DNA of 57,711 nucleotides from Candidatus Omnitrophota bacterium. Lineage in GTDB: Bacteria > Omnitrophota > Gorgyraeia > Zapsychrales > Fredricksoniimonadaceae. Both the position numbers and the translations under genes were made by a program. The stretch lies in NCBI GenBank assembly GCA_015233675.1, contig JADFXH010000012.1, positions 1 through 57,711 on the forward strand, given 5' to 3'. The notes beneath the pieces are model-generated. The model had not been told where the DNA came from. It did not search any database and was given only the letters and a program-made list of their open reading frames with translations. Shown piece after piece: positions 5,953-11,214 of the stretch; within the stretch, counting starts at the first letter, position 1, and every line of letters starts with the position of its first letter.

Positions 5953-6139
5953 TGCAAGGCCAGGAGCATAGCATAATTATCTTCCACACGGAATATTTTT
6001 GCCGTCTGCTTCGGTTTACAACAATTTTGTTCTAAAGATTCTCTTCATTTGGAACAAAATTATTGTAAAGCCTCGCAGACTTTTGGCAAAAAATTCCCGA
6101 ATGTGTGGAAGATAATTATGCTATGCTCCTGGCCAAGCA
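5953..6139. repeat. Long stem-loop 1 in the pheS-pheT gap
   Basis: 32-bp perfect inverted repeat 5958-5989/6103-6134, with imperfect pairing continuing to a loop near 6037-6047. Confidence 0.9.
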
Positions 6140-6178
6140 ATTCTATAGATTGCTGCAACATTTATTATGATTGCATGC

Positions 6179-6410
6179 GCCGGCAATTGGTGAATTTATT
6201 GGTTCGAAGCGACTTGTCATTTTTAGGCAAAAGTTTATTGGTGTTTCGGGAATCCCGAGGCTTTTGGCCGAGGGATGTCTGAATTTGTTTGAGCCTGAAG
6301 CTTCCAGAGAAGCTGAAGGCGAGTTATTCAGACACCGAAACAACAGAAAAACTTTTGACGTTAAAAAAATGACCCAGGAGCGAGAAGCAATAAATTCACC
6401 AATTACCGGT
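6179..6410. repeat. Long branched stem-loop 2 in the pheS-pheT gap
   Basis: Arms 6179-6205/6384-6410 (17-bp perfect core), further paired blocks gtcattttt, caaaagttt, tgtttcgg, tgtctgaat/attcagaca. Confidence 0.85.
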
Positions 6411-8459: not shown

Positions 8460-10925
8460 TTATTCAGATGCAAGGACCGCCAGCGGGTTTTTGACCGGGG
8501 TGATCTTGAGAATCACCGGAACAATTCCTGAAAAATCATCGGACTTAAACTTCTCCAATAATGCGGGATCGAAGGTCATTTTAACACCTAATCCCTCGCG
8601 GGAAATTTCCAGCCCCATGTTCAGGGCGTTTAAATCAATACCGCCAGGGTCAGTCATCGACGCATCTTTATGCCCGGCAGGCGCAGGATTAAGAGCTTTC
8701 TGGATCGCCTCGATATGGTTATTAAATCTGCCCGCAATGATAGCTTGGGGCAAGTCTTTATTTGTATTCGCCTCATTCATGGCAGACAGTAATTTAAATA
8801 TTTCTGCAGCGATAAGGTCATTGGGATTAATGTCAGGATGGAACAAGGAGATTATTTTTATAATTCTTATGCCCTGCGCATTTTTTAATGTGGCATAGAG
8901 AGTGTCCAAGCTTTTTTGACGCCGCAGCACATTTTGATCGTTTACGATTTCTGTTATCATTTTTTTAATCCCCTCCCGGCTTATGTCTGCACCCGATGCC
9001 TTCTCAGAGGAGATCTCACCCAGCAACTCTTTTGACAAGCTTTCAGCGCTCCTATTGACTTCCTGAGCGAAGACAGGCTCTCCCCTTTGTCTGGTTACCC
9101 GCATCTGCCTGGTGATCTCAATGCGCAATAAAGATTCCAGAAACAGATTTCTTTTATTTTGTCCGTCTCTGAATGGATTGGAATACTGGCCTGTCAATAC
9201 ACGCAAGACCCAGTAACTTCCCCTAACATCCTGGTGCTGGTTTATTTCAGGGCATAGCGGTTTATTATATTCATCGAAACCGGTACCAGGCCAGCCTGTT
9301 ATTTCAATGCGCTTTAGTTCCGTAATTTCTTTTTTAAGAAAGTCCAAATCCCTTCGAGGGCTGTTGAGAACGGCTAGCAGGGCTTCACGAATATCATCAA
9401 TGGCCTTAAACTGATCGAAACGGTCCGGGCTCCACTCATGCTGGAAGACTTCAACCATCATCTTCTTAAAATACTGCCCGAAATAGGTTGCTTCAAAAGA
9501 CACATCAATAAAAGGCATAGAACGTCTGTTTTCCAGAATGCTTTCTGCCAGACGCTCCGCATGCTTTCCGTTATTGCTCTCCATGGCAGGGTCTCTCAGG
9601 GCAGATTTATTTTTAGCGGCCGTGGCAACGGAGTTCATGCTTGTTGTCACCATGGCCATGTCACCACTAACCAATAAATCGTCACCGGCAGACGGCCCAT
9701 GCGTAACCTGCATAGCATGATCGATACCAAGTTGTAAACCACCTGAAAAATATTTACGCGGTATCGGTAGTAGCTCCCCCTCTCCGGCCCTCCCCGCAGG
9801 TGGGAGGGAGGCAACAGTATCTTCCTTAATATAATTAAACACGCCCTTTTTATAGGCTTTCAAATATTGCTGATAAATTTTTTCTTTAACCTTAGGGTCA
9901 TCAGACAAAACACCACTGGTCTTACCTTTATTGCTATACACCTGATTGAGAAGAGATTCTTTAAGCTCCAATTTATACCAAGAGGCTAATATCATCGCGT
10001 AAAACATCTGGCGCAATGGCGTGAAGTTTTTGCCTTGGTTGACTTCTTTCTCGAGTTCGGGGAGGATGATTTCTTTGACGATTTGACTGGCAAATGAGTT
10101 GCTTGGCGAACGGTTTGTTCGCTGGGGTGCTTTCAGTTGCATCGCTTCGTTGGTTGGCAACGTGCTTGGGGACACGTCTCCTTCGGGGGCATGTCCCCTG
10201 GTTGGCAATTGGGTTAATTGGCCCTGGTGTTTTTCCAATGCCAGATAATCTTCTTCCAGCATGATTTTTAGATGAGAACCTACAACATACGCGGCGTTAT
10301 TTTGTTCCAACACTTTGGCCTTATCAGCCACGATCCATACTTTATTAAACGTATTGACAGGGACATCCGTTGTTCCGTACATCTGCAGGGCTTTGGTATA
10401 TACATTGTTCCAGAATTTCTTGCCTAATTCTTTTTCAGGGTAAATAAGGGACGATGTTAATTGCTTGAGGATGTAATCCTGCGCAAGCATGTCTTGTCCC
10501 ATTTCGGTTTGGCCCAACTCTTGCGGGATCATGCGGTTTTTCTCATAAGGGCTTAAGTTAACCCAAAGATCATCTTCTTTGATCGTTAATGCGGCCAAGA
10601 AATACTTGATCAATTTTTGGGATTCAGATTTAAACCCAGCACTGTCGAGTTTGAGTCCGGACTTACCTGTATCCAGAATAAAATCAAAAAGAAGAGGATT
10701 GTCCTTGTGGACCTTGACCCCCTTGATCATGACGGGCATATACGCAGGGCTTAAATTCACCATTGTCCCTGGCGCAGGCAGGCCAAGCAACTGAAGTTGT
10801 GATAGCTTGGCATAGGCTGGATTGCTTGTCGAATTCAAAAAAAATGCCACCAGCACTGTTATGGAAATGAACTTTCGAATGTATGTAACAAGGCATGTAT
10901 TACTATTTAAGGCATATGGGGACAT
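8460..10925 (-). CDS. Large modular, probably secreted protein of unknown function
   Basis: Uninterrupted ORF; AGGAG 7 nt before ATG 10925; signal-like RKFISITVLVAFFL...AYA; C-terminal GGIDLN...GIVPVILKITP. Confidence 0.85.
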   Translation of the reverse strand: MSPYALNSNTCLVTYIRKFISITVLVAFFLNSTSNPAYAKLSQLQLLGLPAPGTMVNLSPAYMPVMIKGVKVHKDNPLLFDFILDTGKSGLKLDSAGFKSESQKLIKYFLAALTIKEDDLWVNLSPYEKNRMIPQELGQTEMGQDMLAQDYILKQLTSSLIYPEKELGKKFWNNVYTKALQMYGTTDVPVNTFNKVWIVADKAKVLEQNNAAYVVGSHLKIMLEEDYLALEKHQGQLTQLPTRGHAPEGDVSPSTLPTNEAMQLKAPQRTNRSPSNSFASQIVKEIILPELEKEVNQGKNFTPLRQMFYAMILASWYKLELKESLLNQVYSNKGKTSGVLSDDPKVKEKIYQQYLKAYKKGVFNYIKEDTVASLPPAGRAGEGELLPIPRKYFSGGLQLGIDHAMQVTHGPSAGDDLLVSGDMAMVTTSMNSVATAAKNKSALRDPAMESNNGKHAERLAESILENRRSMPFIDVSFEATYFGQYFKKMMVEVFQHEWSPDRFDQFKAIDDIREALLAVLNSPRRDLDFLKKEITELKRIEITGWPGTGFDEYNKPLCPEINQHQDVRGSYWVLRVLTGQYSNPFRDGQNKRNLFLESLLRIEITRQMRVTRQRGEPVFAQEVNRSAESLSKELLGEISSEKASGADISREGIKKMITEIVNDQNVLRRQKSLDTLYATLKNAQGIRIIKIISLFHPDINPNDLIAAEIFKLLSAMNEANTNKDLPQAIIAGRFNNHIEAIQKALNPAPAGHKDASMTDPGGIDLNALNMGLEISREGLGVKMTFDPALLEKFKSDDFSGIVPVILKITPVKNPLAVLASE
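9775..9808. repeat. REP-like palindrome translated in frame inside the large ORF
   Basis: ctccccctctccggCCCTCCC-cgcaggt-GGGAGGG; peptide SLPPAGRAGEG; resembles 29127-29159. Confidence 0.5.
10151..10208. repeat. Hairpin flanked by a 10-bp direct repeat inside the large ORF
   Basis: TGGTTGGCAA at 10151-10160 and 10199-10208 flank ggggaca...cTTCGg...tgtcccc; 48-nt offset keeps frame. Confidence 0.7.
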
Positions 10926-11037
10926 ACCATTTCTCCTGAAATTCACATTCTAGCTAAAGGGTGCCATATAATAAGGACGCTGTCAAGAGAAGGGCAGCTA
11001 ATGACTAGAAGCTTTTGCGTGCATAAAAGATCTTCAG

Positions 11038-11046: not shown

Positions 11047-11052
11047 AAATTT

Positions 11053-11208
11053 ACCCTGCGCTGTGCGACAGGATCTCGGATGTATTGAACCACAAAACAA
11101 TACTACGGGAGCCGGTCACCTGTTGGCGCGCCTTCGGCGGCCTCAAACTGGCACCCACTTGAGAATGATGGTTCTCATTTACACCAGATTCAACGGCAGA
11201 GGCGGGGT
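11053..11208 (+). ncRNA. ssrS: 6S RNA
   Basis: Terminal pairing accctgc/gcggggt and gctgt/acggc, ttgaacc/ggttc, motifs GGGAGC and GGCACCCAC; near ygfA-rny as is typical. Confidence 0.75.
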
Positions 11209-11214
11209 TTTTAT

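Follow-up and report, generated by a model that had tools for sequence, protein, structure and literature searches.

In MARTX toxins such as Vibrio RtxA, unrelated effector modules lie between the conserved ends of one long secreted chain, are swapped between strains and are released by cleavage at short sites between the modules; these proteins lack a Sec signal peptide and carry a type I C-terminal signal, glycine-rich repeats at their ends and an internal cysteine protease that cuts after Leu. Polymorphic toxins (CdiA-CT, Rhs, MafB and LXG) bear a C-terminal toxin payload followed by an immunity gene, and the cargo proteins of the type IX secretion system (T9SS) of Bacteroidota have an N-terminal Sec signal and a small conserved C-terminal sorting domain around diverse domains. 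Within the phylum Omnitrophota, giant proteins of more than 10,000 amino acids (aa), among them the 'Archaeovorins' and multi-enzyme giants, have been described with C39 or S8 peptidase domains (10.1101/2023.11.21.568195; 10.64898/2026.06.07.730766), and the preprint on the giant genes states that cleavage points are unknown (10.1101/2023.11.21.568195). Here we examined a modular secreted protein encoded on the minus strand at positions 8460..10946 of contig JADFXH010000012.1 from a Candidatus Omnitrophota bacterium, the whole 57,711-nucleotide stretch of which is called the window below. We show that its gene belongs to a lineage-specific, massively expanded Omnitrophota family in which a constant frame surrounds cargo that turns over fast. 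The architecture, the membership and the swapping of cargo are solid, and the window gene is an ordinary member of an extraordinary family.

A constant frame around exchangeable cargo

The coding sequence (8460..10946, 828 aa) is uninterrupted, starting with GTG at 10946 and ending with the stop codon TAA at 8460-8462; from an alternative ATG at 10925 it would run to 821 aa, which is the form recorded in the protein database (P0002). The protein opens with a Sec-type signal peptide (residues 1-46; 10809..10946, minus strand like all parts of the gene), read from the sequence as a charged n-region (RK), an h-region (FISITVLVAFFL) and the cleavage motif A-Y-A↓K after residue 46 (…RKFISITVLVAFFLNSTSNPAYA↓K, the arrow marking the cut here and below). 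An equivalent A-x-A signal was found in 24 of 24 aligned paralogs, and a simple signal-peptide detector flagged 28 of the 34 family open reading frames (ORFs). The signal peptide is followed by a conserved N module of ~360 aa (residues 47-405; 9732..10808) with 44-80% identity to ~30 paralogs, whose landmarks are the PGxMVxLSP hairpin, WVNLSPYE, TEMGxDxLAQDYxLKQ, VNTFNKVW, LKxMLEEDYL, PELEKEVNxGKNF, LRQ, WYK, GVFNYIKE and PRKYFSGG; a hidden Markov model (HMM) of the module matches the window protein at residues 49-414 (E = 5e-165). Behind it lies a linker (9582..9731) with three D-x-A-M motifs, namely DHAM (residues 409-412; 9711-9722), DMAM (9651-9662) and DPAM (9582-9593), and then a cargo of ~300 aa (residues 456-760; 8667..9581), an orphan predicted to be helical at low confidence. 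The pre-C motif D-A-S-M (residues 761-764; 8655..8666), a D-x-A-M variant placed 3 residues before GGIDLN, leads into a conserved C module of 64 aa (residues 765-828; 8463..8654; PGGIDLN…G.G…DPA[ML]…G..PVI..I.P…L) at the extreme C-terminus. The HMM of this module matches residues 760-826 (E = 6e-23), and the protein ends 2 residues later. The base composition is not mosaic, with a GC content of 43.5% in the N module, 43.8% in the cargo and 49% in the C module.

A sequence-only reading of this stretch had singled out most of these parts beforehand. Every string that it quoted is present in the order it gave, that is, LPAPGTMVNLSPAY (residues 56-69), DDLWVNLSPYE (125-135), DMLAQDYILKQLTSSLIYPE (152-171) and PRKYFSGG (396-403) in the N-terminal part, the linkers GDMAM (428-432), RDPAM (451-455) and KDASM (760-764), and PGGIDLN (767-773) and GIVPVILKITP (807-817) in the C-terminal part; DHAM was added as a third motif behind the N module. 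Its helical insert of ~260 aa is in fact a cargo of ~300 aa, and the helical character stands at low confidence, AlphaFold drawing the cargo as helices with a predicted local distance difference test score (pLDDT) below 50 over most of it, which makes a Foldseek search with the cargo meaningless. The same reading suggested that paralog families with fixed ends and swappable middles occur in Omnitrophota, and this was borne out when paralogs were collected with HMMs of the N- and C-terminal parts, since their middles vary and the homologs are neither conserved along the full length nor single-copy.

The window's own genome (G000) comprises 2.12 Mb in 31 contigs and is 65% complete. A six-frame search of it returned 64 matching segments, and HMMs built from these identified 34 ORFs or fragments with the N and/or the C module, amounting to 42,331 aa and 6.0% of the genome bases; the C module is present in 30 of them. 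In all complete members here (778-2640 aa), the N module comes directly after the signal peptide and the C module forms the last ~65 residues, and the N module was likewise first and the C module last in 56 of 56 complete ORFs (662-2394 aa) from other Omnitrophota metagenome-assembled genomes. Among the 23 complete paralogs (253 pairs), mean identity was 62% for the N modules and 43% for the C modules, and cargo similarity was found in a single pair, whose common 164-aa block opens one cargo and closes the other. The window protein has its closest paralog in C22:163940 (2020 aa, with a URO-D cargo), to which it is similar from residue 23 to ~437, just past GDMAM; similarity is absent across the cargo and resumes exactly at GGIDL (768-826). 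In the protein database, 2630 matches were obtained among the 8000 candidates scored, the non-self matches covering at most 60% of the query, mainly the N module, and carrying very diverse precomputed Pfam domains in their remaining parts. The N module was detected in 15 of 151 sampled Omnitrophota genomes, where it is concentrated in the order of the window genome and in some further families of its class.

The cargo of the window protein (residues 471-755) matched only itself among 1.84 billion representative proteins, had no match in Pfam, NCBIfam, PADLOC, PHROGs or PDB sequences, and is shared with no paralog of this genome. Across the family, cargo ranges from ~100 aa to more than 2000 aa. 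The domains recognised in paralogs include WD40, GT2, SNF2 helicase with methyltransferase, histidine phosphatase, HAD, URO-D, HEAT with ankyrin, TPR, DnaJ, NUDIX, protein kinase, cupin with P-loop NTPase and DUF1861; they are mostly cytoplasmic-type enzymes, regulators and repeat domains, and many paralog cargos match nothing recognisable.

The sequence-only reading had taken the protein for a polymorphic effector or toxin carrier. As a classical system for inter-bacterial or prey killing, the cargo would be the toxin and the frame the secretion or delivery apparatus, a view with which the hypervariable cargo, the high copy number, the presence/absence polymorphism within the genus and the effector-typical repeats among paralog cargo (ankyrin, HEAT, TPR and WD40) agree, as do the toxin-type deaminase domains (PF14440) of the actinobacterial homologs described below. 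However, the orphan cargo of the window protein holds no toxin domain, and none was found over the curated cut-off in the cargo of this genome, where one sub-threshold match to Zeta_toxin scored 19.5 bits against a cut-off of 22.3. In addition, the variable part is internal rather than C-terminal, no link to type V, VI or VII secretion systems (T5SS, T6SS or T7SS) was found, and no immunity gene lies next to it, the 3' end of the gene being followed directly by pheT. Paralog cargo is mostly of the cytoplasmic type. The toxin part of the earlier interpretation was not borne out, and we regard a classical toxin as improbable, the last in order among the four explanations weighed here.

The D-x-A-M junction motif

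D-x-A-M comes one to three times after the N module, recurs ~3-10 residues before GGIDL in most members and in other genomes, and also parts the domains inside long cargo. The family contains 99 copies of the pattern D.AM (2.34 per 1000 aa), the other 567,674 aa contain 49 (0.086 per 1000 aa), and this 27-fold enrichment marks the linkers as real and specific to the family; the control patterns D.AL and D.A[ILV] were flat, with no family enrichment. No protein outside the family has two or more copies of D.AM, save a 42,429-aa giant with six, close to the background rate. This giant is a single ORF (G000:C27:31083-158372, plus strand, 127 kb) of the kind reported for Omnitrophota, and in the genome-wide ORF search it matched neither the N- nor the C-module model.

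The third codon positions of the motif vary (GAT 58 and GAC 41; GCG 40, GCC 27, GCT 17 and GCA 15), the 30 nucleotides on either side hold almost no information, and Shine-Dalgarno-like tetramers precede 9% of the motif Met residues compared with 12% of other internal Met and 34% of called gene starts. The varying synonymous positions and the lack of flanking conservation rule out a DNA recombination site, and the absence of a Shine-Dalgarno-like signal rules out an internal translation start. D-x-A-M is thus selected at the peptide level.

Signal-peptide-like segments stand straight after 31 of 521 junctions in 245 family proteins, compared with 47 of 3610 other Met (odds ratio 4.8, p = 1e-9) and 44 of 2390 random control positions. 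Examples are a Sec signal with an A-x-A-type site (DNAM-ASNRPILRKFVTGALAAVLLAGTTAEPVLA↓QS), the twin-arginine (Tat) signals NPAM-MSRREFGLKL… and NQAM-KRVVSRRKFLK… (G156), and a lipobox (DQAM-…ILSGC). Since intact Sec, Tat or lipoprotein signals often begin with the motif Met as their residue 1, whole genes appear to have entered by in-frame fusion at the start codon. Such precision would be explained most simply if the seam had to regenerate a functional site, with the cargo's own Met as its P1' residue, and this points to cleavage; we therefore infer from the sequences that D-x-A↓M is a candidate cleavage site. The same lenient detector flags ~30% of native N-termini but 6% of junctions, where signal peptides are thus under-represented, indicating that the cargo is mostly of the cytoplasmic type. 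A genus-wide absence of Tat, which would make the internal Tat signals relics, was rejected upon finding TatC in 13 of 16 congeners. The internal signals may be relics, as they would be if export came first, or may still be in use, as they would be if cytoplasmic cleavage came first.

The second of these possibilities was considered as an explanation of the whole family, in which captured genes would be expressed as polyproteins and cytoplasmic cleavage at D-x-A↓M would take place while the chain is being translated or shortly afterwards; of the pieces, only the N module with its signal peptide and those cargo units with a Sec, Tat or lipoprotein signal of their own would be exported, the cytoplasmic-type units remaining inside. 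Sec, Tat and lipobox signals that start at the motif Met and are intact, cleavage sites included, the presence of TatC in most congeners and the dominance of cytoplasmic-type proteins among the cargo all fit such early cleavage. However, it leaves the exported N module and the C tail of every member unexplained, no cytoplasmic protease candidate was identified, the low share of signal peptides after junctions relative to native N-termini fits decaying relics, and the homologous actinobacterial module is extracytoplasmic. On balance, we consider early cytoplasmic cleavage quite unlikely, ranking it just ahead of the classical toxin. A related proposal, that arbitrary whole genes are captured by in-frame fusion at their start codons between an exported head and a tail, both constant, and freed by a dedicated D-x-A↓M protease, seems to us a tentative possibility, on the unlikely side. 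If it were true, these ultra-small, possibly predatory bacteria would have a generic means of exporting or delivering any protein, and the cleavage code still missing for the multi-enzyme proteins of the phylum would have been found.

The conserved modules and a possible export route

Structure prediction of the full-length protein with AlphaFold (38-row alignment) gave a mean pLDDT of 60, with 80-94 in the N core, 72-93 in the C module and less than 50 in the cargo, and prediction of the N module by itself (79-row alignment) gave a mean of 73, a predicted template modelling score (pTM) of 0.68 and a core above 90; across models the N core scored 80-96. The N module was modelled as an alpha+beta domain with two long beta-hairpins and several long helices, the C module as three strands and one helix, and the DMAM segment as a beta-strand in both models (strand 430-439, pLDDT ~80, up to 86). 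Foldseek returned nothing significant for the N module in PDB (best E = 0.14-0.19, TM-score below 0.25) or in BFVD (best E = 0.015, TM-score 0.09), and profile searches of PDB sequences gave no match for either module. The sequence-only reading had proposed an export role for both termini; a Sec signal peptide is evident, but the N and C modules match no known secretion or sorting domain in Pfam or NCBIfam. A place of the N module in the erythromycin esterase/ChaN/Tiki/TraB superfamily was not supported, as the module has neither a conserved His nor a Pfam match and no Ere-like structure appeared among the top 50 Foldseek matches listed, none of which was significant. The C module was also rejected as a duplicate of the N-module hairpin, the two having no profile similarity.

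Relatives of the N module were found in Actinobacteria. A tblastn search against plasmids gave four Streptomyces records with E values down to 4e-24, and hhalign aligned the N module with the actinobacterial module at a probability of 99.8-99.9% (E = 2e-28 to 2.7e-36); the alignments span 240-250 columns, beginning at the helix that precedes WVNL[SN]P and ending at Y.GG[VI]D[LF]. As judged by these profile alignments, the N module is clearly homologous to a module that Actinobacteria carry in secreted, membrane-anchored proteins. The family of these proteins counts at least 996 members, in Streptomyces, Kitasatospora, Frankia and Actinacidiphila, and its order of parts is signal peptide, head, PGGIDF, core, GGVDL, linker and a transmembrane (TM) helix with RRRR; one member ends in a sortase-type LADTG signal in place of the TM helix and RRRR. 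The head is mostly deaminase-like, the His of HSE being invariant and both Cys of CxxC nearly so; some heads match PF14440, and some members are annotated as 'nucleic acid/nucleotide deaminase domain-containing protein' (an example of the family is WP_121549542.1 on plasmid p1 of Streptomyces fungicidicus). In WP_251091514.1 (L133:4885-7263, plasmid of Streptomyces sp. Caat 7-52), which has a C-terminal LADTG, the head carries a D…E-I-K pattern that is nuclease-like by eye, and heads therefore vary somewhat in the actinobacterial family too.

The actinobacterial architecture implies that the module works outside the cytoplasm, beside the membrane and joined to another functional domain. Both families place it behind a signal peptide, flanked by GG[IV]D[LF] strands and joined to another domain. 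In contrast, the actinobacterial module is C-terminal to the head and precedes the TM or sortase anchor, whereas here it is N-terminal and there is no C-terminal TM helix; D-x-A-M junctions, a tail module and cargo arrays are absent there, and the head is mostly a single domain. Residues that reach at least 90% conservation in each of the two families include N130, E135, R138, T147, R151, D157, K161, N303 and R312, with no Ser, His or Cys, a set that would be compatible with an anionic-ligand binding site or an unconventional active site rather than a classical protease. The Omnitrophota C-module profile matches the actinobacterial proteins only at PGGIDF (E = 1e-4 to 1.5e-2, 12-31 columns), which is a shared strand motif and no proof that the whole C module is homologous. 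The homology to proteins of the culturable and tractable Streptomyces offers a practical handle on the function of the conserved module.

These relatives bear on another explanation, in which the chain is not cleaved but displayed at the surface or in the periplasm, with the N and C modules as an envelope anchor or clasp, D-x-A-M as a structural clasp strand and the cargo as an exposed, rapidly diversifying loop serving adhesion, antigenic variation or extracellular enzymology. Several features are consistent with display: the relatives in Actinobacteria are anchored at the surface, GG[IV]D[LF] recurs around their core and also where the N module ends and the C module begins, D-x-A-M often continues a GG[IV]D[LF] strand (as in GGVDFAM) and is modelled as a beta-strand, and the identities of the N and C modules co-vary across paralogs (Spearman 0.46). 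However, D-x-A-M also occurs deep in long cargo, between unrelated domains far from both modules, the motif Met coincides with the starts of captured proteins, and the match between the C module and GGIDF is a short motif of only 12-17 columns (E = 1e-4 to 1e-3). We consider uncleaved display unlikely, although we rank it second of the four, ahead of early cytoplasmic cleavage.

The explanation that we favour, tentatively and at somewhat less than an even chance, is a carrier that is exported first and processed at D-x-A↓M afterwards. The whole chain would be exported by Sec, and the N module, possibly with the C module, would be an extracytoplasmic carrier, docking or targeting unit rather than an enzyme of a known type; its extracytoplasmic role is suggested by the signal peptide in all members together with the anchored architecture of the actinobacterial homologs. 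The cargo could then end up in the periplasm, on the surface or, through a secretin or TolC channel, outside the cell or in a prey cell, and processing at D-x-A↓M would free each cargo unit, starting at its original Met. Such chains may have originated when whole genes joined in frame at their start codons, selection retaining only the fusions that restored the site. The genome encodes 7 secretin-domain proteins and 6 TolC-like proteins, and this set makes passage beyond the periplasm plausible; for a 2.1-Mb genome that is 65% complete, it is also an unusually rich set of outer-membrane channels.

Several observations weigh against export followed by processing. Much paralog cargo, such as the kinase, SNF2 helicase, DnaJ and NUDIX domains, needs cytoplasmic cofactors and would be odd in the periplasm or on the surface, and intact Tat and Sec signals after D-x-A-M would be useless once the whole chain had been exported by Sec, so that they fit cytoplasmic cleavage at least as well. 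The N module offers no clue to its activity, having neither a known fold nor any conserved Ser, His or Cys, and the C module matches no known sorting signal. Finally, genes resembling type IV pilins (pilin or type II secretion system) stand beside four family loci, a weak enrichment (4 against 1.2 expected, p = 0.03, the loci not being independent). A dedicated protease or transporter gene next to the family was sought and rejected, these pilin-like genes being the only recurrent neighbours. At C28:64802-66797 (minus strand), four type IV pilin-like paralogs (KKGFTLIEIIVVL…) form a tandem array directly upstream of the family gene C28:66919-71247, their ends conserved and their centres variable, and single pilin-like genes adjoin the family genes C11:168812 and C25:202664.

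If the carrier and the D-x-A↓M code proved true, they would explain how cytoplasmic-type enzymes and regulators come to be placed outside the Omnitrophota cytoplasm and would provide a concrete cleavage site for the long modular proteins of the phylum. Because it takes up ~6% of the genome and varies between congeners at one locus, the family is likely central to the ecology of the organism. Overall, the observation made by the sequence-only reading is confirmed and its interpretation is partly supported, whereas our statements on what the frame does, on D-x-A↓M as a cleavage site and on where the cargo would act are inferences.

Within the N module, alignment and a pLDDT below 50 delimit a variable low-complexity loop (residues ~244-285; 10092..10217; PTRGHAPEGDVSPSTLPTNEAMQLKAPQ…), a recurrent in-frame mini-insert. 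Across paralogs (e.g., G000:C11:42913, C25:193747, C26:160265 and C28:67189), a low-complexity peptide of ~30 aa (PTRGHVPEGDVSPS(T/R)LP…LxxKAPQG) occurs in frame at up to three loop positions of the module, and 11 of the 12 genome-wide matches to its core VSPS[TR]LP fall in N-module loops of family genes. The peptide looks like a small mobile in-frame insert.

The pheT-6S RNA spacer and related systems

As the sequence-only reading had it, the family gene lies antisense within a housekeeping run, the neighbours pheT (TIGR00472), a RarA-like AAA ATPase, 5-formyl-THF (tetrahydrofolate) cyclo-ligase (TIGR02727) and RNase Y (TIGR03319) all being on the plus strand. Its remark that zapA often sits in this run came close, the gene being in the neighbourhood of ssrS. 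A 6S RNA (ssrS) was identified at 11050-11212 on the plus strand, between the family gene and rarA (RF00013; score 54.9 bits, gathering threshold 46.4); a promoter-like TTGCGT…TATAAT of its own lies upstream, and the RNA gene ends in GGCGGGGTTTTT and is kept upstream of rarA in all relatives examined. The inserted segment consists of the family gene and ~90 bp upstream of it, and the stop codon lies 9 nucleotides from the convergent pheT stop. A transposon-like insertion was rejected, as there are no terminal direct or inverted repeats at the ends of the insert and no transposase within it.

The interval between pheT and rarA lacks the family gene and holds only the 6S RNA in the congeners G154 and G158 and in G159 and G161 from other families of the order. 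In G154, a small extra ORF with a signal-peptide-like start (MRKGILSLLGIALLVCFIAFNGSAQG…) was seen between the 6S RNA and rarA (L145, C16 ~5990-6360), and this ORF is absent from the window. Two other congeners, G155 (862 aa) and G156 (~1300 aa, including a GNAT domain), have a family gene in the interval on the same strand as the neighbours, and the window genome has a third, different family member there, inverted. The N module of the window protein is ~50-60% identical to those of G155 and G156, compared with 80-88% for rarA, indicating that these are different members and not orthologs. The swapping of middles thus extends to the locus itself, with different cargo at the same site in different congeners. 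In G156 (L144, C3:1147000-1158200), apparent frameshifts break both pheT and the inserted family gene into overlapping ORFs; these are probably assembly errors in this 7-contig, possibly long-read genome rather than signs of real pseudogenes.

Full-text literature searches found no description of the frame, the motif or the polyprotein idea for Omnitrophota. The described systems each share part of the design. Like MARTX, the family arranges an array of modules between conserved ends, with cleavage proven for MARTX and proposed here. In contrast to MARTX, the window protein has a Sec signal peptide, a globular N module, a 64-aa tail and D-x-A-M; a Pfam scan of it showed no protease domain, the MARTX hallmarks Peptidase_C80 and RTX-type terminal repeats both being absent, and in place of a type I context with rtxBDE-like genes its neighbours are pheT, the 6S RNA and rarA. 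With polymorphic toxins, the family shares a constant trafficking part and a hypervariable payload marked by a short motif, as well as multiple copies and strain-level polymorphism, whereas the payload of the window protein is internal, the payloads in the family are mostly non-toxin or orphan, and no immunity gene lies downstream.

The cargo proteins of T9SS resemble the family in that a Sec signal and a small conserved domain at the extreme C-terminus frame diverse domains. The C module is shorter (~64 aa), however, a large N module is present besides, and the phylum is another; the T9SS C-terminal domain (TIGR04183 and Por_Secre_tail types) gave no NCBIfam or Pfam match at E <= 1. The giant Omnitrophota proteins come from the same phylum and are likewise chains with signal peptides or TM helices that string together cytoplasmic-type enzymes and HEAT, TPR, NUDIX, HAD and GGDEF domains, cleavage being suspected there too, but the papers on the giants describe neither a head and tail frame nor D-x-A-M (10.1101/2023.11.21.568195; 10.64898/2026.06.07.730766). 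If the favoured carrier with processing at D-x-A↓M were true, the family would represent a new modular delivery architecture, distinct from MARTX, Rhs/CdiA and T9SS cargo.

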